Of a stretch of 64,000 nt of DNA, positions 1 to 31,100 are shown in pieces (within the stretch, counting starts at the first letter, position 1; every line of letters begins with the position of its first letter). Source of the stretch: a virus. Both the position numbers and the translations under genes were made by a program. The stretch spans positions 133,198 to 197,197 of IMG/VR virus record IMGVR_UViG_3300036761_001580. One strand, given 5' to 3'. The notes beneath the pieces are model-generated. The model searched no databases. It was not told where the DNA came from and saw only the letters and a list, made by a program, of their open reading frames with translations.

Positions 1-1532
1 ACGTCTTCCAGAGCCTCGGAGATGGAGGCCTTCGACTTCACGATGGCCTCCTCCCGCTCTGCGACGTTGTGCTCCACACGCTGGATCTCCCCGAGGCGCT
101 TCTCGACGTCATCCTTGTAGGCCGCGATCTGAGAGATCCTCTGAGTGTACTGCGTGCACAGCTCGTGGGCCTTCCGACCCTCGACCTCCAGAGCCTGCAT
201 CTCCCCGGTGATGCGCTCGTACTCCAGCGCGCTCTGCCTCAGGAGAGCCTTCTTCTCCGCGATCTGAGCCTCTACCGAGACGGCCTGCTGCAACCGCTCC
301 CGATGACGCAGAGCCCGAGCCTGTCGGATGCGCTCCTCCTCTTCGTTCTTGGCCTTCGTGAGCGCCTTCAGCTCCACTTCGAGGGTGGAGGCCCTGGACT
401 CTAGTCCAGTGATCTTCTCCGTGATAGAGGCCTTGGCCTTGGCCGAGATGGTCGCCCCGCAGGTCGGGCACTTGTCCACACTGCGGAGGTCCTTGCCGGA
501 GACGAGGGCGCGCAGCTCGCCGAGAGCCATGTCGCGCTCGCCGCGCTTGTTCTCCACCCTCTGAGCGAACGACAAGTCGAACTCCGGCAGCGAGAGATCC
601 GCGAACATGGGGTTCTTGAGGTCGCTCAGCTGGACGGACAGATCCGAGATCTCCTGAGAGAGGACTCCCGAGCCCGAGCGGTTGTACGCCTCCGTCTGGG
701 TGATCTTCCGGGCTGCCCACTCGTTCTGGAGCTTCAGCCGGTGGTCCTCCGCGAGCTTGAGCTGGTCCTGCGCCGATGCAGTGTCCAGATCGCACTTAAT
801 GAGGACCTGCCCCCAGTCGGCACTCTTCAGCTGAGAGAGGGCGCTTCTCATCTGCTCCAAGGCACCCTCGTCGTAGGCGATGCGCTGCTGAACCGACGAG
901 ATGTCCTGACCTACAGCGAGCTTCTTCGCCCGAGCGGAGACCAGGATCTCATCCCAGTCCTCGACGCCCGTGATGCCGGCCATGATGTCCATCCGGTCCT
1001 TGTTCGTCCCCCTCAAGAAGGTCGAACCGACCCGGTGGCTCAGATACGAGATGGAGAGGAACCGGCTGTAGGTGACCCCCACAGCAACCTGGACAAGTGT
1101 ACGGGTCTCCGCCATCGTTGCGCCGCGGCAGTCGACCCACTGGGAACCTTCGAGCTTGTCGAAGAACAGCGCGGTGCCCTTGTAGGAGGTCTTCGTGTTG
1201 TTGTCGACGGGGTAGTAGTCTTCCTTCCACCCGCGACAGTAGGTCACCCGGTAGTCGACACCTTCCCAGGAAGAGAAAGTGACCCTGCCGGCGTAGCCCT
1301 CGTTGAGGACCTGGTTCACGACCTCATTGCCATTTACGCCAGTTGGATTGTCTCCGAAGAGCACCTCGCAGAGAGCGTTGAAGAGGGAGGTCTTCCCCGC
1401 GCCGTTCGAGTCTCCACCCTTGTCCTCGTTCACCCCGATGAGGTTGACCAGACCACGACGCTGCACGTCGATGTCCGGAGATCGGCCGTACGAAAACAAC
1501 CCAGTCGGGTTCGCTGACTTGATGACGAGCAT
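1..1532 (-). CDS. sbcC: Rad50/SbcC-like ATPase (phage gp46-like); partial, C-terminus lies beyond the window start
   Basis: Not in the ORF track because it runs off the edge. Minus-strand translation from ATG at 1532 gives MLVIKSANPTGLFSYGRSPDIDVQ.., a Walker A P-loop NGAGKTSLFNAL, then long coiled coil containing the Rad50 zinc-hook motif CPTCG (VDKCPTCGATIS near plus 450-480). Lies immediately next to the Mre11-like gene. Confidence 0.8.
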   Translation of the reverse strand, partial: MLVIKSANPTGLFSYGRSPDIDVQRRGLVNLIGVNEDKGGDSNGAGKTSLFNALCEVLFGDNPTGVNGNEVVNQVLNEGYAGRVTFSSWEGVDYRVTYCRGWKEDYYPVDNNTKTSYKGTALFFDKLEGSQWVDCRGATMAETRTLVQVAVGVTYSRFLSISYLSHRVGSTFLRGTNKDRMDIMAGITGVEDWDEILVSARAKKLAVGQDISSVQQRIAYDEGALEQMRSALSQLKSADWGQVLIKCDLDTASAQDQLKLAEDHRLKLQNEWAARKITQTEAYNRSGSGVLSQEISDLSVQLSDLKNPMFADLSLPEFDLSFAQRVENKRGERDMALGELRALVSGKDLRSVDKCPTCGATISAKAKASITEKITGLESRASTLEVELKALTKAKNEEEERIRQARALRHRERLQQAVSVEAQIAEKKALLRQSALEYERITGEMQALEVEGRKAHELCTQYTQRISQIAAYKDDVEKRLGEIQRVEHNVAEREEAIVKSKASISEALED

Positions 1533-17183: not shown

Positions 17184-17247
17184 TCCACACCTACAAGGTC
17201 ACGTAGAAGTCACATATCGAAGGCTGAATCTATATCACAGACGCTCC

Positions 17248-18606
17248 TCATTTGTCAACGACGAAGGGGTTGATCTTGGCAGCGTGCTCCCACAGCCGGT
17301 GCAGCTCCCGGGAGATAGACATCCGCGCCAGATCTGCATCGAGAACGATCTCAGGGATCGTGATCGATCCGTCTCGCGCGAACTGCGGGCTCAGGATGAT
17401 GATCCCCTCGTCGCGCTCGTCATCCGTCTGATCGATAGCTATACAAAGGTCCAGTGCCCTGGAGATGTCGATGCTCAGGCCGCGGTGCTCCAGGGAGAGA
17501 CGGTCAGCCTTCACGCCGGCCATGTTCGCCTGGCTCGCCTCGAAGATGGCAACATTGAACTTCTCCGCGTGCCTCTTCAGGTCCCAGACGATCTGCTTCT
17601 GCTCACGCCGCTCCTCGCCCTTGAACCGGACGCTGGGAGCGATGATGTTCAAGTAGTCCCAGATCTCGACATCCGGAGACCACCCTTCTTGATCGCGGAA
17701 GCGCTCGACCTCGACCTCGACCTCAGCCACGGTGGTCTCCTCCGCGGTCGCCTTCACGATCTTCAGCCGGTTGCTCCAGGTCTTCATCCAGGAGAACGTG
17801 CGGTCGAGATTGTCCTTCTCCTCCTGGGTGAGCAGCAGGTTCGAGATGCGCTGGTAGTTCAACTCGCTGAACATCGCGTCGTACCTGCCCATCGTCATCT
17901 CCTCGGAGTTCTCGTAGGTGACGTGGAGCACGTTGAAGCCTTGGAGCAGGAGCGCGTAGCCCATGGCGTTCAAGAAGATCGACTTGTACCTCTTGAAAGG
18001 CGCGATGAAGTCGCACACCATCGGGGCCTTGATAACGAACTGCACGTCGAGACCGCGGATGCCTGTCATCAGTCGCGGGTTCAGATTAGGGTTGTCTCGC
18101 GATACCCTCCGACGGGACATGCGTTCAGGGTAGTTGTCAACGTAGTCGACGACTCTGAGCTTGCGGCCTTGGATGACATTTCTGGCCTCCAGAACGCCCT
18201 TCCCAAGGGCTTCCAGGAGGTAGTCCACCCGCGAGGTCTGCGAGAAGCCCTCGAAAGCTGCGCGCGACGTCGAGTTGATGATACAGAACGAAATGTAGGC
18301 CCTGAACTTCGCGGACGCATCCTCCAGAAATGTGAGCGGGCGCGTGTACAAATGCCACATCTGGGCACGGTACTTCACCAGCTCCTCGGGGTCTTTGACC
18401 GAGAGCATCTCCTGGTCGAGGAAGTCCCACACAAGAGGCTTCCACTTCCGTTCCTTCAGGAGCTTCACCAGCCACTTGTAGGATGGGATCTGGAAGTGCT
18501 CGGGCTCCACGACCGCCAGGACGTCAGGATCGACCAGGCCAGGCTTCTGAACCACGGCGGCGAGGAACTCGGCCTCGATGTTGACATCGATCTTCAAGTC
18601 GGCCAC
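17248..18606 (-). CDS. dnaB: DnaB-family replicative helicase with non-canonical Walker A
   Basis: LMTGIRGLDVQF (DnaB TGxxxLD), Walker B-like EIWDYLNII, H4-like IFEASQANM, arginine-finger-like LSLEHRGLSID. The P-loop position reads APFKRYKS rather than GxxxxGKT. Confidence 0.55.
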   Translation of the reverse strand: MADLKIDVNIEAEFLAAVVQKPGLVDPDVLAVVEPEHFQIPSYKWLVKLLKERKWKPLVWDFLDQEMLSVKDPEELVKYRAQMWHLYTRPLTFLEDASAKFRAYISFCIINSTSRAAFEGFSQTSRVDYLLEALGKGVLEARNVIQGRKLRVVDYVDNYPERMSRRRVSRDNPNLNPRLMTGIRGLDVQFVIKAPMVCDFIAPFKRYKSIFLNAMGYALLLQGFNVLHVTYENSEEMTMGRYDAMFSELNYQRISNLLLTQEEKDNLDRTFSWMKTWSNRLKIVKATAEETTVAEVEVEVERFRDQEGWSPDVEIWDYLNIIAPSVRFKGEERREQKQIVWDLKRHAEKFNVAIFEASQANMAGVKADRLSLEHRGLSIDISRALDLCIAIDQTDDERDEGIIILSPQFARDGSITIPEIVLDADLARMSISRELHRLWEHAAKINPFVVDK

Positions 18607-23425: not shown

Positions 23426-24135
23426 CGTTTCGCATCGACCTCTTGCACGAGCTTCATCCACTCCTGGTCCTCGGAGTGCTCTGGCTCCGAGAGCTTCTCC
23501 TTCTTGGTCGGCGGCAGGTTGTACTCCATCCACCGCATCACGAGGTCCGGCACCGACTTGGAGATGGGCACCCCTGTGAGCGTGGTGATCCCCTTGGGAG
23601 AGAACTCACGGGCCTTGAACTTGTTGTAGAGCTTCACCGGGTGGACACCGAACTGGAGCAGCATCGAGATGGCGATGGCCCAGCAGTTCGCGAAGCCGTT
23701 CATCTCGTGACCGGACTTGCCCATCTCTATGAACACCTCACCGGGGGTGCCGTCGTCGTACACGCTCACGGTGAAGTAGCCCTCCACGTTGACGATCTCC
23801 CCGTCATCAGACTGGCTCGCCAGGCTGAACTTGCAGGTGCGGCTCTTCCGCTCGTCCGCCAAGTGGTAGCGAACCGGATTCGGCTTCCCCTGAGGGGAGG
23901 TGCCGTAGGGGGGCGGGCTGTAGTCTACAGGAACCGCCTCAGGTGGAGGCTCTTCCACTTTCACGTCAGAAGCTACCACCACCGCAGTAACAAGCTCCGC
24001 GGCGGGCTCCGCCTCCTTCTTCTCTGGAGGGGGCCAAAGTCTGACCTCATCACGGTTGGCAGGTTCCTCTTTGATGAGCATGGAACCGCTGTTCCAGATG
24101 TTGGTACCTTTGGGGGATTCTGAAGGTTCTGTCAT
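23422..24135 (-). CDS. TSCPD-domain protein (domain otherwise found at the C-terminus of class II ribonucleotide reductases)
   Basis: GEVFIEMGKSGHEMNGFANCWAIAISMLLQFGVHPVKLYNKFK...TGVPISKSVPDLV matches the TSCPD pattern (EvFinvGKaGsCasa..A..liS.aLr.Gv...SCPDai). N-terminal Pro/Glu-rich linker. Start trimmed to MTEPSESPKG. Confidence 0.5.
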   Translation of the reverse strand: MTEPSESPKGTNIWNSGSMLIKEEPANRDEVRLWPPPEKKEAEPAAELVTAVVVASDVKVEEPPPEAVPVDYSPPPYGTSPQGKPNPVRYHLADERKSRTCKFSLASQSDDGEIVNVEGYFTVSVYDDGTPGEVFIEMGKSGHEMNGFANCWAIAISMLLQFGVHPVKLYNKFKAREFSPKGITTLTGVPISKSVPDLVMRWMEYNLPPTKKEKLSEPEHSEDQEWMKLVQEVDAKR

Positions 24136-25679
24136 CTTGTCGTCCTTTTCGCTAAGAAGTCGTGAACCACCGTGGCAGCGTACCCCACGTCTCGGTCGTT
24201 CTGGGTCGACCGACACGCGGCCGACGGGTGCAGGCTGATGGCGACGTAGGCCTCAACAGGCCCTATGAGACCTTCAGGATTTTCCAGGATCTCTCCGCAG
24301 TGCTTCGTGACCCTACTCCTGTACGGAGTTACAGCCATCATCGCCTCGTTGCCGAAGGCGATGATCAGCTTGGGCTTCAAGAGGTCGATTTCGGCTCTCA
24401 GGTACGGCAGGCACGCCTTGATCTCAGGGTAGGTCGGTGGACGGTCGTCCTGGGAGTAGCACTTGCAGGTGTTCGTGATCCAGCACTCCCGCCGGTCGAT
24501 GCCGGCCTCCTCCAGGAACTGGTTCAAACGGCCTCCGGCAGGTGCCCCGGGGAAGAACGGCTGGCCGTACCGCCGCTCCTGAAGCCCGGGGTTCCTCCCG
24601 AGGATCATGATCTGCCGGTCGGACGAGCCCTCAGGGTAGGTCGGGCCCTCCGGATCGCAGTCCTGCCTCAAAGGGCACCGGTTGCACTGCGAGATCGCCA
24701 AGTCGACCTCTCCCAGAGAGGCCCAGGACCGATTCTGGCCGCTGTTCTGCTCCATGCACGCCACCATGCCCGTCAGGTCCGAAGAATAGGCTGGGAGCCG
24801 CCCTGCGTTCGTGAGGAACGTAGGCCCGATCCGCTCCGACAACACCTGCGACCGAAAAGCGTCCCTCGACAGCGGAACCGTGAGGCTTTCGACGAGGAGC
24901 TGGTGCTCTTCCTCCGAGAGGCACTCGGCAGCCTCTCGCAAGGTCGGCAGCTTCACGAGCCTGTACATCTCCGCGACGAATTCACCCTCAGGGAGGATCC
25001 GGGCGGTCGTCTTCCGCTTCTCCAAGAACTCCACATTCTCAGGGCTCAGGATCTCCCCGAGGCTGCCGAACTTCTTCAACAGCTTGGCCGCGGTCTTCTC
25101 TCCGACCTGCTTCACCCCGGGAAGGTTGTCGGAGGGGTCCCCGACGAGAGCCTTGAAGTCGGCGATCCTGTCCGGAGGCACGCCGAGGTCCTCCTCGACG
25201 ACTCCCGGGGTGACGAGGAGCTGGCGCTGAGAGTCCCAAACGTTCAACTTGAAATCGACGAGCTGCCACAGGTCCCGGTCACCGGTCACGAGCACGATGT
25301 GCCAATCCCCCGGAAGGCTCTTGAAGTGGTCCGACAGCCAAGCAAGCGTGTCGTCCGCTTCGACACCGGAGACCAGCACCTGACGAACCCCCACCGAGGT
25401 CAGGTAACGCTGCACGAGGATCCCCTGCTCATTGAGAGCTTCGAGATCCAGGTCGCTGTCCCTCTTCTGCTGGAGGCGATGGGCCTTGTACTCCTCGTAC
25501 AGCTCGCTGCGCCACCGAGACTTTCCACGGTCCCAGCAGACGATCACATCGTCGGGTGCGAACTGGCTCAAGACCTCGAAGATGTAGGTCAGGATCTTGT
25601 TCGCGACCATCTCCATGGGACTGGAGTGCGCAGCGCGCCACAAGAACGGGTTTCCGTCGATGAGGAGGACTCGGGGCAC
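24132..25679 (-). CDS. fusion protein: N-terminal 5'-3' exonuclease/FEN (Pol I 5'-nuclease-like) + C-terminal family-4-type uracil-DNA glycosylase-like domain with Fe-S cysteines
   Basis: 5'-nuclease motifs LLIDGNPFLWRA, GVEADD, TGDRDLWQLV, H3TH GDPSDNLPGVKQVGEKTAAKLL. UDG-4-like motifs CNRCPL, ILGRNPG (motif A variant), GRLNQFLEEAGI, CWITNTCKC, IIAFGNEAMMAV, LHPSA (motif B). Confidence 0.75.
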   Translation of the reverse strand: MPRVLLIDGNPFLWRAAHSSPMEMVANKILTYIFEVLSQFAPDDVIVCWDRGKSRWRSELYEEYKAHRLQQKRDSDLDLEALNEQGILVQRYLTSVGVRQVLVSGVEADDTLAWLSDHFKSLPGDWHIVLVTGDRDLWQLVDFKLNVWDSQRQLLVTPGVVEEDLGVPPDRIADFKALVGDPSDNLPGVKQVGEKTAAKLLKKFGSLGEILSPENVEFLEKRKTTARILPEGEFVAEMYRLVKLPTLREAAECLSEEEHQLLVESLTVPLSRDAFRSQVLSERIGPTFLTNAGRLPAYSSDLTGMVACMEQNSGQNRSWASLGEVDLAISQCNRCPLRQDCDPEGPTYPEGSSDRQIMILGRNPGLQERRYGQPFFPGAPAGGRLNQFLEEAGIDRRECWITNTCKCYSQDDRPPTYPEIKACLPYLRAEIDLLKPKLIIAFGNEAMMAVTPYRSRVTKHCGEILENPEGLIGPVEAYVAISLHPSAACRSTQNDRDVGYAATVVHDFLAKRTTR

Positions 25680-25691
25680 GACGACCTCACA

Positions 25692-26858
25692 TTAGAGTTT
25701 GCGAATTGACAACTTCTTCTGCGGCTCGCCTTCCATCTTCGCGAGGAGCTTCTGAACCTCTTCCAGCTTCACGGCTCCCGGGGCGTTCCCGGCAGCAACG
25801 GACTCCTTGAAGCGTGCCCACTTCAACCTGTCGATCTTCAGAGTCAGGAGGTCGTCGTTCCCAGACTCCTGGCACCACTCGATGATCGAGGCCTCGTCCT
25901 GGAAGGAGGACTCGAAGTCGTCCGAGATCTGGGCCACGAAGCCTTCAGCCTCCAGGCAGCCCTCGGAACCGTACTTCTGGATGAAACCATTGAAGAACAC
26001 CTGGTACGCAGGATAGCGGGCATCGAAGTTCATCTGAGCACGACTGAGGGCCTCCTGAGCTTCGAGATAGGTGGAGGCTGTGGTCCCGAACAGGACCATG
26101 TCGTCCCTTTTCTGCTGCTCAGCCTCTTCGAGGCGTTTCTGCTCCTCGGCTGCGAGCCGCTGGCGCTCCTGCTCTTCCTGCTCGGCACGCACCTTCTCCG
26201 GATCCTCGACGGGCTCGGACTGCGCAGCGGTGCCCGGGATCGGCGGAGGACCGGCCGGTGGCACCGGAAACACCGAAGGGGCGACCTTCAGGATGTTCAC
26301 GGCACCGGAGAGCGCGTAGGCCTGCTGGACGGACCAAACCGAAGGATCCCCTTCGGCCCGGCAGAGGAGCATCACGTCCCCCGCGGATTCAGCCTTACTG
26401 AACACCTGTACGGTCAACTTCGAGACCGCTGCGCTGGTCCACGCACCTGTGACGGCATCCTGCCGCCATGTCGGGCCATCGAGCTGCAAGACAGAGCCCA
26501 CCGGGAGATCCAGATGGGTCGCAGGAGGGACCCCTGGAGGGGTGGCCGGTGGCACCGCCGCCACTTCCGACACCTGAGCAGCAGCTTCGGAAGCGGAAGC
26601 CTTCGACTTCCCCACCCGGGACGGCGGGGGTGTGGACTCGGGGACCTCCGGAGGCGGATCGGCCGCAGGAGGAGTCGAAGACTCGGCCACGGAAGCGTCC
26701 ACAGGGCCGTCCGTGGGCTTCTTCTTCCCCGAGTGCTTCGCCGTCATGTGCGTCTTCAGGTACCGGGGGCTCGTGAAACCCCCTTTTCCACAAATACTGC
26801 AAACGATCTCAGGGGCTGAACCTTCTGCGGGAGCGCCAGCGTTGGCTTCGTCCGACAT
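25692..26858 (-). CDS. C2H2 zinc-finger / coiled-coil protein (start trimmed to ATG 26858)
   Basis: MSDEANAG..CSICGKGGFTSPRYLKTHMTAKH (C2H2). Pro-rich linker. Charged coiled coil (QEEQERQRLAAEEQKRLEEAEQQKR). GGAGGA Shine-Dalgarno 5 nt upstream of ATG 26858. The track's TTG start at 26963 is probably an over-extension. Confidence 0.6.
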   Translation of the reverse strand: MSDEANAGAPAEGSAPEIVCSICGKGGFTSPRYLKTHMTAKHSGKKKPTDGPVDASVAESSTPPAADPPPEVPESTPPPSRVGKSKASASEAAAQVSEVAAVPPATPPGVPPATHLDLPVGSVLQLDGPTWRQDAVTGAWTSAAVSKLTVQVFSKAESAGDVMLLCRAEGDPSVWSVQQAYALSGAVNILKVAPSVFPVPPAGPPPIPGTAAQSEPVEDPEKVRAEQEEQERQRLAAEEQKRLEEAEQQKRDDMVLFGTTASTYLEAQEALSRAQMNFDARYPAYQVFFNGFIQKYGSEGCLEAEGFVAQISDDFESSFQDEASIIEWCQESGNDDLLTLKIDRLKWARFKESVAAGNAPGAVKLEEVQKLLAKMEGEPQKKLSIRKL

Positions 26859-26966
26859 CGAATCCTCCAGCGGCCAAATAGCCGAAAACGCACCAGAATT
26901 TCCTAGCGCGGGTTTGATGTGGTTGTCCTGCACCGCCTTAAAAGCACGTACAATGCGAAACAACCC

Positions 26967-26996
26967 ACCTTACGCTATAGGGCAGAGTTCTGTCAA
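26967..26996 (-). promoter_or_regulatory. candidate sigma70-type promoter (perfect -35 TTGACA, weak -10 TAAGGT, 18-nt spacer) upstream of gene 25692..26858
   Basis: Minus-strand read: cctgTTGACAgaactctgccctatagcgTAAGGTggg. Lies in the 160-nt non-coding gap. Confidence 0.3.
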
Positions 26997-27021
26997 CAGG
27001 AAAGGAGGAGGAAAAGATCGT

Positions 27022-27564
27022 CTAGGCGCAGTAATCGTCGGCACCGGAGACCACGATGCACTCACTTGGGCAGTTCTCTATGTCTTCAAGGAAGACACAC
27101 TCGCCGGTATCGAGGTCACACTCTCCGGTACCCTCGACCCATATGCGTAGAGCTGGGATACTCTCCGGGTAGCACTCGTTGTCGGGGGGATCATCACACA
27201 CGACACCATCGCAAATACTGTCCATGCAGTAATCGTCCCCGGGGGCCTCGATGCATTCGTAACCGCACGCAATCGTCTCGTATTCGTACTCGCAGGCATC
27301 CTCGATGCACGACGAAGATCCGGTGTACTCGAAGAGGTTCCCCTCCTCGTCACAGGTGTCCGGAGGTGGGTCCGTGCACCCGTCGGCGCAGTCCGTATCG
27401 TAGACCTCGTCGGTGTCCGTGTCGGAATCGGCATCCGAGTCGGAGTCGATGTCCGAATCGGAATCCCCTCCATCGACCCCCGCGTCCTCCTCGAAGAGAG
27501 GAGAACCATCTTCTGCACAGCCGGCGAACAGAACCAGAGCCATGACCAACAGCATCTTCTTCAT
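27022..27564 (-). CDS. secreted lipoprotein with Asp/Ser-rich repeat and Cys-rich acidic domain
   Basis: MKKMLLVMALVLFAGC (signal peptide + lipobox FAGC), then DSDSDIDSDSDADSDTDTDE, then a region with ~20 Cys and many Asp/Glu. Strong SD AGGGAGG upstream of ATG 27564. The track start 27603 was trimmed. Confidence 0.65.
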   Translation of the reverse strand: MKKMLLVMALVLFAGCAEDGSPLFEEDAGVDGGDSDSDIDSDSDADSDTDTDEVYDTDCADGCTDPPPDTCDEEGNLFEYTGSSSCIEDACEYEYETIACGYECIEAPGDDYCMDSICDGVVCDDPPDNECYPESIPALRIWVEGTGECDLDTGECVFLEDIENCPSECIVVSGADDYCA

Positions 27565-27607
27565 CTCGGGCCTCCCTTTGTTCAGCCAAGTCCCTCCTGG
27601 CACCTAT

Positions 27608-27635
27608 ATCATAACCATGGCTGTGGGACTGTCAA
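27608..27635 (-). promoter_or_regulatory. candidate sigma70-type promoter: TTGACA -16 nt- TATGAT, upstream of the lipoprotein gene
   Basis: Minus-strand read: ccccacTTGACAgtcccacagccatggtTATGATataggtg. ~45 nt upstream of the lipoprotein SD/ATG. Confidence 0.45.
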
Positions 27636-27645
27636 GTGGGGAAAA

Positions 27646-28104
27646 TCACGGTGTGGGGGAGGCGTCTTCAGACTTCGACTCTCGTCTTGTAGCCCCCAAC
27701 TGGGCAGCAGCGAGCTGCTGGATTCCGGAGGCAACCATGTTGACCACGAAAGCGTTTTTCGAGAGGCCACCGCGGCGGGAGAAGTCCACGATCATGTTGT
27801 GAAGGGGTCCTGGGAAGCTGATGAGGAGCTTCTTGGGGGTGTCGGGGGTGTAGGCTCTCCCCGTGGGGCTCCAGTGGCGCGTTCCGTGCTTCGTCCGGTC
27901 CTCCACGACCCCGTGCTCTCGGAGGCACCGCAGGTTGTTTCCCACCTTCGACAGGGAGTAGTTGATGCCGTGCTGCATCATGATGACCTTCTGGACCATC
28001 TCGGTGGACACCCAGTCGTGCTCCACACGGAGAGCCTCCAGTGCGGCGAGAATCCGCTCGCGCAGCAGGTCACGAATCTCCGTCGTCGTAGCCGCAGAAA
28101 CCAT
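27646..28104 (-). CDS. transcriptional regulator with C-terminal ribbon-helix-helix (CopG/Arc/MetJ) domain
   Basis: C-terminus KKLLISFPGPLHNMIVDFSRRGGLSKNAFVVNMVASGIQQ fits the RHH strand-helix-helix pattern (GLSKNA matches the CopG GLSKSA). Promoter plus palindrome immediately upstream. Confidence 0.65.
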   Translation of the reverse strand: MVSAATTTEIRDLLRERILAALEALRVEHDWVSTEMVQKVIMMQHGINYSLSKVGNNLRCLREHGVVEDRTKHGTRHWSPTGRAYTPDTPKKLLISFPGPLHNMIVDFSRRGGLSKNAFVVNMVASGIQQLAAAQLGATRRESKSEDASPTP

Positions 28105-28117
28105 TTAGGCCTCCTGG

Positions 28118-28132
28118 TCTCCACAATGGAGA
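28118..28132 (-). promoter_or_regulatory. inverted repeat TCTCCA-ttg-TGGAGA (candidate operator) between promoter -10 and the regulator gene SD
   Basis: Perfect 6-bp arms with a 3-nt spacer, read on the minus strand at plus 28118..28132. Located 13 nt downstream of the -10 and overlapping the region upstream of the SD caggagg. Confidence 0.4.
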
Positions 28133-28144
28133 TCCAACACGTAC

Positions 28145-28173
28145 TATATAGCAAAGGAGGATCGAGATGTCAA
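28145..28173 (-). promoter_or_regulatory. candidate sigma70-type promoter: TTGACA -17 nt- TATATA upstream of the RHH regulator gene
   Basis: Minus-strand read: cctcgTTGACAtctcgatcctcctttgcTATATAgtacg. Perfect -35, 5/6 -10, ideal 17-nt spacer, in the 87-nt gap after the 1580-aa gene. Confidence 0.5.
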
Positions 28174-28191
28174 CGAGGTTCTAAACCACAC

Positions 28192-31100
28192 TTACGGCTC
28201 GCCAACCCAGGCGAAGGGGCTGGTCATACCACCCTTGCCGTGGTAGCTCACAAAATTGCACTCGACGTCGTGCGCGTAAACACAGATGCCCCAAACCGGC
28301 CCCGGGAAAGAGGCATCATGCATTGGCATATAAACACGCGCACGAGAGGTGCCAAATCCTGTCTGCCCCTGATACGGATACGCATGTATCGCATTTCCAG
28401 TGAAGTACGCTCGACTAACGAAATTCGAGGCTTCGTCCCCCCAAGTATAGGAGACATAGATCACGTAAGGTGCGAGCGCAGGAGCAACCCCGCCAAACCC
28501 CACAGCCTCTTCATTAAAGGAGTAGGTCCAAGGACCTACCTGCTGAGTACACGAAGTGTAAAAAGTGTTCCCTGTGATGGTGGCGCTGAGCTGATCACCA
28601 CCCGCGTGATCAAAATCTCCATGATGCGTAATGAACAGGGAGTGCAACGGCGTCTCGGTCGTGCCCTCCTGTTCGAACCTGTCATCGAACATGCAGCCCT
28701 TAACCGTAAGGGTGCTCTTCACCCCGGTATCTTCGTGTCCTGCATTGTAGTAAACCAAGTAAGCCCTTGGCGCTGAGCCAGCCCCACCTTCAACCGTCTC
28801 TACCGACGCGAACATTTTGCAGCCTTCAATGAAAACATCCCGACAGTAGAACAAACGGATGCACGCACTGCCGCCAAAAACGTCCTGAGGGGCACCTACG
28901 CCGAATAAAAAGAGAGTGCAATCCTGAATTGTGATGCCGTTGCTAGGGGGATCACTATCTCCACCCACAGCGATGCAGTGAGAGCCATCACCAGCGTAGA
29001 GAAGCTCATTATGCGCATCGACCCTGATCGTGTTCCCCCGAACCACAGTATCCCTCTGAGGGTGCAGAAGGTAAAGACCAAGACCCGTAGAATAAATGAC
29101 GTTGTTCGCTATCAAAGTGAACAACAGGGGGGAAACGTAGGCACCAATCTTCCTCCCGAACAAGACATTATCCGAGATAATGAGGTTGTTGCCGACCGCG
29201 AAAAGAGCCTGGCCCTCCGCAGTGTCAGAACCGTCAATATAAATCGAGTTCCCACTAATTACACCGTGAGACAGAGCCTTCAAATCAGCAATTCCGTAAA
29301 TGAAGGTCGAAAGGTTGGCAGGGTGCACTGTAAAGAACACCTGATTCCTACAGATGGACACGAGGTCCAAATAGTTTGCAGCACCCTCCACGCAGATGCC
29401 GTGAACGGCCCCCGACGTAGAGACCAGAGTGGTCATCATGTTGTCGTTGATCTCGAAGGACTTCGCCGGCCCAGAACCAACGTCGATGTCGAGCCAGACC
29501 GCGTAGACGTTCCCGTTGGAGCCCAGTCCGGCTACGACGTTGCGCGACACGGACACGCCTTGCAGAGCAGAATCCGCAGCCTGCAAGTCCGAGGAAATGC
29601 CGATCCCCACGAGGTTGCCGCCCATGAAGAGCCCTCCATTGAGGCCCTTCACCATCGTGTAGATGGTGTTGTCGTTGATGTTCAACCCGTAAGCGGCGTT
29701 GAGAGCACCGAACGAATTGATCACCACGTCGATGCCAACATGCCCTATCAGGGTGAGCTTGTTGCCCGAGAGCGTCACGTCGTAGCACTCCCCCCGCTGG
29801 AGAATGCCGCCACCGAGGGTGTTGAGGTAGTTGTTCGTCACCGAAGACGCGGTCATGTCCTCGATGTACAGCCCCACGGCGTACTGCGCAGTAGGAATCG
29901 AGTACCCCGAAATCACGTTCCCACCGACATCGGCCATCCAGATGTCGTAGAGGTGAATCCCGATGACCGAATTCACCGCACCCGTGGCGTTGCCGATGCG
30001 GATGTAGTTGTTCTTGATGGCGATCTCCCTGGACTGGAAGGGTGCTACAGAGGCCACCCTGATCCCACCAGAGAACGAGAAGATCAAGTCGCCGGAGTCA
30101 GGGACCACGATCACGTTGTCGGAGATCACCGAGCCCGTGAGGTTGTAGATCTGAATCGCGGCCAGTGTGTAGACCGGAACGGCGAAGATCTTGTTCCCTG
30201 TGATGGTCCAGGCGTTGTACCCGTTCGTCGCAGTCGCCCACGCCGCGAACAGGAGCACACACCCGGCGAGGGTGTTGTTCTTGATCGTGACGAAGTCCAT
30301 CTGGGTGGCAGCGCCCGGGTTCGCTCGGAGGAAAGGACCCCCGCGGGAGCCCACGAGGCAGTTCTCAACGGTCGTGTAGTCACTCAGGCTGATGAGTGGA
30401 ACCGAGTTGTCGTTGTAGAAGCTGAGGTCCGACACCTTGCAGCCCTTGCTCAACAGCCAGGACCCTTCGGGGTCGATGACACCGGAAGCCCTGACCAGGC
30501 ACTTCGCTGGTGTGTTGAATCCTCGCGTCCCGCGAACGTTCACGTACTCGGGCTGGGTGATCTGGAAGCCGATCTCCGCGATGCCGGTCACCGTGACGGT
30601 CACCGAGCCCCCGTTCTCTGTACCTGCGATACCAGTGTACATCGAGTACCGGGCGTACTCGAACGCCGTGAACAGGTTGTCGTACGCCGCCTGGGAGTGA
30701 ACCACCGCGGTGGCGGAGATTCTGGAGGCCACGGACCAGGGATCGTCCACTCGGTTCACGTTCTGCGTGAAGTCGACGATCCTCAGAGGATCGATGTCGG
30801 TCGCATCGGTCACCAAGCAGTAGAGCAGGATGCCCCTCTCTGGAGCGTCTCCAGCGTCCGAGTAGTGATAATCAAAAGAGACTGCGGGAACGTCCTGGGT
30901 GGACCCCAGGACATACCTCATCGCCGCCTGGAGGTCTCCACCGAAGGTCCCTGTGACGTTGAGGATGTGATACACCCCGGCCATGTCCGCCCAGACCAGC
31001 TGCACTGCACTTGGCACCGCAATGAGGCTCTGCGTAGACTTCACCGAGATTCTCTGACCCCGGCAGTAGAAAGACCCGCCGTTCACGGAGATGTTGAAAC

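Follow-up and report, generated by a model that had tools for sequence, protein, structure and literature searches.

In the immI region of phage P22, the ribbon-helix-helix (RHH) repressor Arc autoregulates Pant, the promoter of the arc-ant operon. The protein consists of one RHH domain, and its 21-bp operator lies between the -35 and -10 hexamers. CopG of plasmid pMV158 (PDB 2CPG, 1B01) is also an RHH autorepressor, and binds a pseudosymmetric element that overlaps its own -35. Control can also be built into the transcript: stem-loops in the 5' leaders of E. coli ompA and B. subtilis aprE, and the 5' stabiliser of phage SP82, set mRNA stability or the accessibility of the Shine-Dalgarno (SD) sequence.

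The locus described here shares features with both kinds of system. It lies in the window, the whole 64,000-nt stretch of viral DNA that was analysed, and consists of a short gap in front of a gene for a predicted 152-aa regulator (Table 1). The gap holds a promoter, P1, a perfect inverted repeat and an SD. A palindrome beside a gene for an RHH protein tempts one to infer that it is the operator of that protein, as the first-pass annotation proposed, and it is this inference that comparison with relatives corrects. On balance, and only modestly, we favour a different reading: a working P1 followed by a leader RNA stem-loop before the SD, with the palindrome not serving as the specific operator of the encoded protein.

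Table 1. Features of the regulator locus and its surroundings (positions in the window), and stems adjoining the SD in related lineages.
Feature	Sequence	Position	Strand	Remark
Gap before regulator gene		28105..28191	-	exactly 87 nt between the stop codon of the 1580-aa ORF (28192) and the ATG of the 152-aa ORF
P1 -35 hexamer	TTGACA	28168..28173	-	perfect consensus; TTGAC invariant in 16 lineages
P1 spacer	17 nt	28151..28167	-	core TCGATCC (GATCC at 28159..28163); ends TGc
P1 extended -10	TG	28152..28153	-	read from the sequence
P1 -10 hexamer	TATATA	28145..28150	-	4/6 to TATAAT; inside 8-bp palindrome CTATATAG (28144..28151)
P1 putative transcription start		about 28137..28139	-	placed by the usual distance to the -10
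Conserved block (+1..+17)	GTACGTGTTGGATCTCC	28128..28144	-	spans the putative start and runs into the left arm; candidate regulator binding site
Segment after TATATA, before left arm	GTACGTGTTGGA		-	read from the sequence
Left arm	TCTCCA	28127..28132	-	includes CUCC, complementary to the SD
Loop	TTG	28124..28126	-	read from the sequence
Right arm	TGGAGA	28118..28123	-	SD-like; cc separates the arm from AGGAGG
SD	AGGAGG	28110..28115	-	5 nt (cctaa) 5' of the ATG; GGAGG invariant or nearly so in 16 lineages
Regulator start codon	ATG	28102..28104	-	read from the sequence
Regulator gene		27646..28104	-	152 aa; predicted winged helix (residues 4-80) and probable RHH (about 90-135)
P2	TTGACA-16-TATGAT	27608..27635	-	lipoprotein-like gene, ATG 27562..27564
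P2 leader hairpin	GCCA-ggagggact-TGGC	27585..27601	-	loop shows SD-like AGGAGGG upstream of the true SD
Cargo slot		27022..27564	-	variable between lineages
P3	TTGACA-18-TAAGGT	26967..26996	-	zinc-finger gene and replication genes beyond, ATG 26856..26858
P3 leader		26859..26966	-	about 100 nt; highly conserved among close relatives
P3 leader hairpin	GCGCTAG-gaaatt-CTGGTGC	26890..26909	-	compensatory changes in L001 and L014; no Rfam match
Exonuclease/uracil-DNA glycosylase gene		24132..25679	-	515 aa; 5'-3' exonuclease (FEN-like) fused to uracil-DNA glycosylase superfamily
Candidate host-type promoter	TTGACA-18-TATAGA	17229..17258	-	3' end of DnaB-like helicase gene and next gap
Stem, window	TCTCCA ttg TGGAGA			
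Stem, L001	GATCTC catagt GAGATC			
Stem, L014	GGATCTT ctac AGGATCC			
Stem, L016	GATCTCCT cta AGGAGATC			
Stem, L018	TCTCC attac GGGGA			
Stem, L002	TCCGGT gtat ACCGGA			
Stem, L005	CTCCGTA tac TGCGGAG			
Stem, L011	AGGTCTTTTGT atat ACAAAAGGTCT			
Stem, L031	CCAAGG ggg CCTTGG			
Stem, L032	CCTCAAT gatat ATTGAGG			

Host-type promoters at the junction of the tail and replication modules

Every gene of the window is encoded on the minus strand and, as the first pass described, intergenic space is nearly absent at most gene junctions. Upstream of the gap stand a baseplate wedge protein and beta-helix fibre proteins, the 1580-aa ORF being itself beta-helix fibre-like; downstream follow the fused 5'-3' exonuclease/uracil-DNA glycosylase (UDG), a TSCPD protein, SNF2 and DnaB helicases, a family A DNA polymerase and a clamp-loader subunit. 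The gap is thus the junction between the late (tail) and early (replication) modules, as had been suggested. Relatives keep the gene order of fibre gene, regulator, optional cargo gene, zinc-finger protein, exonuclease/UDG and TSCPD protein. The exonuclease/UDG fusion is kept in all relatives with enough sequence.

These relatives were collected by protein searches and contig look-ups, which yielded 16 distinct upstream regions on uncultivated phage contigs of up to 212 kb, with regulator proteins that range from 96% down to 43% identity to that of the window. GenBank phages gave no DNA-level match and none encodes the regulator, and for the exonuclease only distant relatives turned up; the host search found it encoded in none of 185,579 species genomes. 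The sole taxon label, a weak one, comes from a 7-kb contig binned as a Chloroflexi MAG. No tRNA gene occurs in the 64-kb window. The tetranucleotide CTAG is strongly depleted there: trinucleotide counts predict 68 sites and base composition 235, and 30 are present. GATC shows no depletion.

When the 16 lineages are aligned with MAFFT, no column is invariant outside TTGAC, TATA and one G of the SD, the rest of GGAGG being conserved at 90% or more. With the -35, the TATA and the SD as the sole elements retained throughout, the alignment supports P1 as a genuine, conserved host-type (sigma-70-type) promoter driving the regulator gene, in agreement with the first reading. That reading was also correct in its TTGACA, its 17-nt spacing, its palindrome and its coordinates, and erred in scoring the -10 at five of six positions. 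The A at position 2 is present and the final, normally critical T at position 6 is absent, which is why a consensus scanner that listed the neighbouring promoter at 27635 did not list P1. Positions 5 and 6 of the -10 vary across the lineages (TA, TG, TC, CC, TT), which is unusual. Most lineages have a spacer of 17 nt and two have one of 18; for L018 the length is 15 nt up to TATATA, or 17 nt if TATAAA is taken as the -10. A TG one base 5' of the -10 hexamer can be read from the alignment in 12 of 16 lineages. The -35 region of L018 is also tandemly duplicated 5' of the regulator gene (TTGACAATCTCCTGTTGACAATCTGAT, 1433..1452).

The hexamer TTGACA is not in itself enriched: the window has 10 plus-strand and 11 minus-strand occurrences against 10.2 expected per strand. 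The 64 kb contain a single exact TTGACA-N17-TATA (shuffles give 0.78 matches when one mismatch is allowed), and among relatives each of the 26 loci that match this combination has it once, in every case immediately before the regulator gene. Of the 11 minus-strand hexamers, three fall in three consecutive short gaps, before three consecutive genes. The second and third of these sites are the two further TTGACA promoters, P2 and P3, which are present as first described and, like P1, conserved in relatives. P2 is conserved in every relative that has the lipoprotein-like gene, with a -10 of the form TAYRWT, and the TTGACA and TAAGGT of P3 are kept down to 43% protein identity. This conservation of the P2 and P3 -10 elements indicates that the polymerase involved does read TAnnnT. 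Together the three promoters suggest that the main sigma factor of the host reads a classical -35, and they mark the likeliest entry of host RNA polymerase into the replication module of this uncultivated clade. The further perfect TTGACA at 17229..17258 is a candidate host-type promoter inside the replication module. A TATAG motif considered as common to P1-P4 was dropped; its spacing is inconsistent and relatives do not keep it.

The slot between the regulator and zinc-finger genes is variable. In the window it holds a Cys/Asp-rich protein whose start, MKKMLLVMALVLFAGC, resembles a lipoprotein signal; in the L018/P0010 lineage it holds a gene with a P22 antirepressor N-terminal domain; and in L002, L005 and L030-L033 it is empty. 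Where sequence is available (window-type lineages, L018) the cargo brings its own TTGAC-type promoter, in the manner of a moron. The leader of P3 was considered as coding sequence, a reading ruled out by indels that break the frame or stops within it in L001, L014 and L021. The TTG-start ORF at 25692..26963 is therefore too long; its true start codon is the ATG at 26856..26858, preceded by GGAGGA.

The regulator protein and its possible binding sites

The 152-aa protein had been called an RHH regulator, a description that applies, probably, to its C-terminal part alone. An AlphaFold2 monomer model (mean pLDDT 79, above 90 over residues 10-80) places helices at residues 4-25, 34-45 and 51-63 and strands at 67-72 and 75-80, all with pLDDT above 90, and Foldseek matches this domain with probability 1.0 to the DNA-binding domains of Zur, Fur, MecI and BlaI and to viral F93. 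By this model, residues 4-80 are a winged helix of the Fur/MecI type. Two further helices follow at 99-140 (pLDDT about 75-80), and the RHH strand is not formed in the monomer model. The segment KKLLISFP...RRGGLSKNAFVVNMV, or KKLLISFP...GGLSKNAFVVNMV, aligns in register with CopG, a weak match (HMM E = 0.9, hhalign probability 60%), and one family member matched HicB; Pfam has no family above threshold for the regulator, and no RHH model reaches threshold. An RHH domain at about residues 90-135 is accordingly probable, on weak similarity. The family comprises 22 clusters in 5.8 billion proteins and has no Pfam model, and a literature search for winged-helix/RHH fusion regulators in phages returned nothing relevant; the fusion of a winged helix with a probable RHH is an undescribed and unremarkable domain combination. 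Neither the recognition helix (SLSKxGNNLR) nor the RHH strand (xLLxSFP) varies more than slightly among 15 homologues. By alignment to CopG the DNA-facing strand residues would be K92, L94 and S96, and since the central one is a leucine the RHH part may serve mainly to dimerise the protein.

Could the palindrome be the operator of this protein? An RHH-type dimer or tetramer bound to TCTCCA-N3-TGGAGA at about +7..+21 would block initiation or early elongation and so produce negative autoregulation. The repeat is perfect and unique in the window at 0 mismatches; it sits where a roadblock repressor could act, in front of a gene for a predicted two-domain DNA-binding protein. The corresponding stems of relatives are mostly perfect Watson-Crick repeats, and TCTCC-N5-GGAGA or a one-mismatch version of it is common to six close-relative lineages. 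An operator would nonetheless be expected to conserve its half-sites equally, at a fixed spacing and in a fixed position relative to the promoter, and the locus shows the opposite pattern. Palindromes of relatives differ in sequence and arm spacing although the DNA-reading residues are nearly invariant; among close relatives the left-arm columns are conserved and the right-arm columns are not, with some pairing to the left arm retained as the right arm varies; and the position of the stem follows the SD, not the promoter. Nowhere else in the 64 kb is the palindrome repeated, which also speaks against an operator. L001, whose protein is 95% identical, carries a one-base deletion in the right half-site and can still form GATCTC/GAGATC. 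The central DNA-facing residue of the RHH strand, moreover, would be an invariant leucine, a poor reader of bases. With unrelated stems facing nearly invariant reading elements in 15 homologues, a palindromic operator for the regulator protein is unlikely, and the comparison does not support the first-pass proposal to that effect. A regulon-wide operator was also considered and rejected: GGATCTCCA and mismatched versions of the palindrome occur elsewhere only in coding sequence, mostly antisense, an effect of codon usage.

Better placed for a role in regulation are the sequences around the hexamers. Autoregulation, or the action of another factor, might operate through the TCGATCC core of the spacer, the palindrome CTATATAG over the -10 and the +1..+17 block GTACGTGTTGGATCTCC, with the hairpin as a separate element; we regard this as a tentative possibility, and one compatible with the leader stem-loop that we prefer. 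When the window is compared with L014, identity is 91% over the 34 positions that lie outside the hexamers from the -35 to the left arm, against 35% at 4-fold synonymous sites in the adjacent gene; for the window and L016 the corresponding values are 71% and 41%. A hand count for the window-L014 pair gives 15 of 17 identical positions in the P1 spacer and 10 of 16 in that of P2, and the +1..+17 block barely changes in any relative whose protein is at least 55-66% identical. As non-hexamer sites are far more conserved than synonymous ones, some sequence-specific constraint acts on the P1 spacer and on +1..+17. The arrangement GATCC-N7-CTATATAG-N8-GGATC is nearly symmetric about the -10. The motif ATWGTACGTG (family D13) is found again in the P3 leader, where GTAYGTG is kept in most lineages down to 43% protein identity. 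Inverted repeats as short as 5 bp, and 9-of-10 matches of this size, could each be due to chance, at an estimated rate of about 0.3 per comparison. Against a role for these blocks in binding the regulator stands their absence from the distant L002, L011, L030 and L031, although the reading heads of the protein are kept there. Autoregulation of the regulator gene is possible, and an operator, if there is one, would more likely lie in the spacer or the +1..+17 block than in the palindrome. It is to these two elements that the comparison redirects binding experiments.

The P3 leader (26945..26954) and the P1 start region (28138..28147) have a 10-mer in common, ATTGTACGTG or ATAGTACGTG, which could be a winged-helix binding site or an RNA motif. 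The presence of GATC in both spacer and left arm raised the idea of Dam sites, which was dropped because GATC is abundant in the window (517 sites, observed/expected 1.01).

The inverted repeat as a probable stem-loop in the leader

A perfect stem of at least 6 bp adjoining the SD arises in about 1% of composition-preserving shuffles (p about 0.01 for the window taken alone). Every lineage has a stem, ending -2 to +6 nt from the SD and lying 9-21 nt from the -10; loops are mostly of 3-7 nt, with one weak 19-nt call (L030). From one lineage to another the stems are unrelated in sequence, register and loop length (Table 1), and the unrelated palindromes at the equivalent place in relatives include CTTTTGTA/TACAAAAG. 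Perfect SD-proximal stems nonetheless exceed those of shuffles across seven lineages with unrelated stems (Fisher p = 3e-7, a combined value that is optimistic because the lineages are not fully independent), and this recurrence indicates that the inverted repeat is under selection. The alternative, that the palindrome is a chance or neutral feature without function and only the promoter and SD matter, would sit well with hairpin energies no different from those of shuffles (z = -1.3 in the window, which is unremarkable, and +0.6 to -2.1 in individual lineages, none thermodynamically exceptional) and with the absence of classical covariation among close relatives. It would leave the recurrence of unrelated stems, and the window value itself, to coincidence, and we consider it the least probable of the readings weighed here. 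Nor does the palindrome qualify as a terminator of the upstream fibre gene, a candidate rejected for want of a T run: the stem is followed by CCAGGAGG, and the scanner lists no intrinsic terminator in the gap. Rfam 15 gave no match at E up to 1 on either strand of 26500..28500.

On the reading that we prefer, P1 (TTGACA, 17-nt spacer, TG extended -10, TATAnn) would start transcription of the first gene past the tail module, with a leader of about 34 nt. In this RNA the palindrome would fold as UCUCCA-uug-UGGAGA, with its end 3 nt 5' of GGAGG, the SD core. The CUCC of the left arm is able to pair with the SD; by pairing instead with the SD-like right arm it would leave the true SD free, and the hairpin would in this way set how efficiently the regulator mRNA is translated, and possibly how stable it is. 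Were P1 repressed, the strongly conserved spacer and the +1..+17 block would be the likelier place for the contacts.

Folding predictions for the window agree with this scheme, the accessibility of the SD being 0.81 and falling to 0.22 with the right arm shuffled. Averaged over 15 lineages, accessibility is 0.47 against 0.26 with the right arm shuffled (Wilcoxon p = 0.015). In five lineages the SD is predicted to be mostly paired, so the idea that the hairpin frees the SD is not general, and in the predicted lowest-energy folds of L001, L024 and L018 the left arm pairs with the SD and not with the right arm. For nine close relatives the RNAalifold covariation term is about zero, and a two-sided change is seen at one pair only; classical covariation is absent because the pairing register shifts between lineages, and support for the structure therefore comes from its recurrence in distant ones. 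In 12 of 15 lineages G-U pairs give the sense strand a better fold than the antisense strand. The stems themselves are mostly perfect Watson-Crick and more significant without G-U than with it, a pattern that a DNA site fits equally well. The leaders of P2 and P3 also contain conserved hairpins with compensatory changes, that of P2 being replaced by GTCGGC/GCCGGC-type stems in the L016 and L008 lineages.

A more elaborate version would make the leader a three-part switch, in which a conserved anti-SD, GAUCUCC, pairs either with a fast-evolving decoy, UGGAGA (on), or with the true SD (off), the balance being tuned by lineage or shifted by temperature or a factor. Such a factor could be the winged-helix/RHH protein itself, acting on the overlapping conserved DNA or RNA block. 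We hold this switch to be improbable, and somewhat more doubtful than the palindromic operator; if true, it would determine how much of the first regulator is made at the late/early junction of this large, uncultivated phage.

Comparison with known systems

The resemblance to P22 is one of layout. As with Arc, the first gene that a sigma-70-type promoter reads encodes a small phage regulator with a probable RHH fold, and in the L018/P0010 lineage the antirepressor-type gene that follows recalls the arc-ant arrangement. Unlike Arc, the regulator here has an added N-terminal winged helix, and the palindrome lies in the transcribed leader with a sequence that is not conserved. The likeness to CopG lies in the protein, whose C-terminal 45 residues run in register through strand, helix, G-x-S-K turn and helix; the similarity is weak, as noted above, and no conserved element like the one that CopG binds over its -35 is seen at this locus. 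P1 also recalls the extended -10 promoters (TGnTATAAT) in the TG one base before its -10. Unlike these it has a perfect -35 as well, and the final T of the -10 is missing in most lineages.

The leader itself compares most directly with those of ompA, aprE and SP82. The stem would begin about 6-10 nt in from the putative 5' end of the transcript, and not right at it, which sets it apart from these leaders. In common with them, it is a short stem-loop just 5' of the SD whose structure is kept while its sequence drifts, and the hairpins in the P2 and P3 leaders extend the likeness to the neighbouring transcripts. Set beside these systems, the element is of an ordinary kind and well supported by comparison; the phage clade to which it belongs is uncharacterised.
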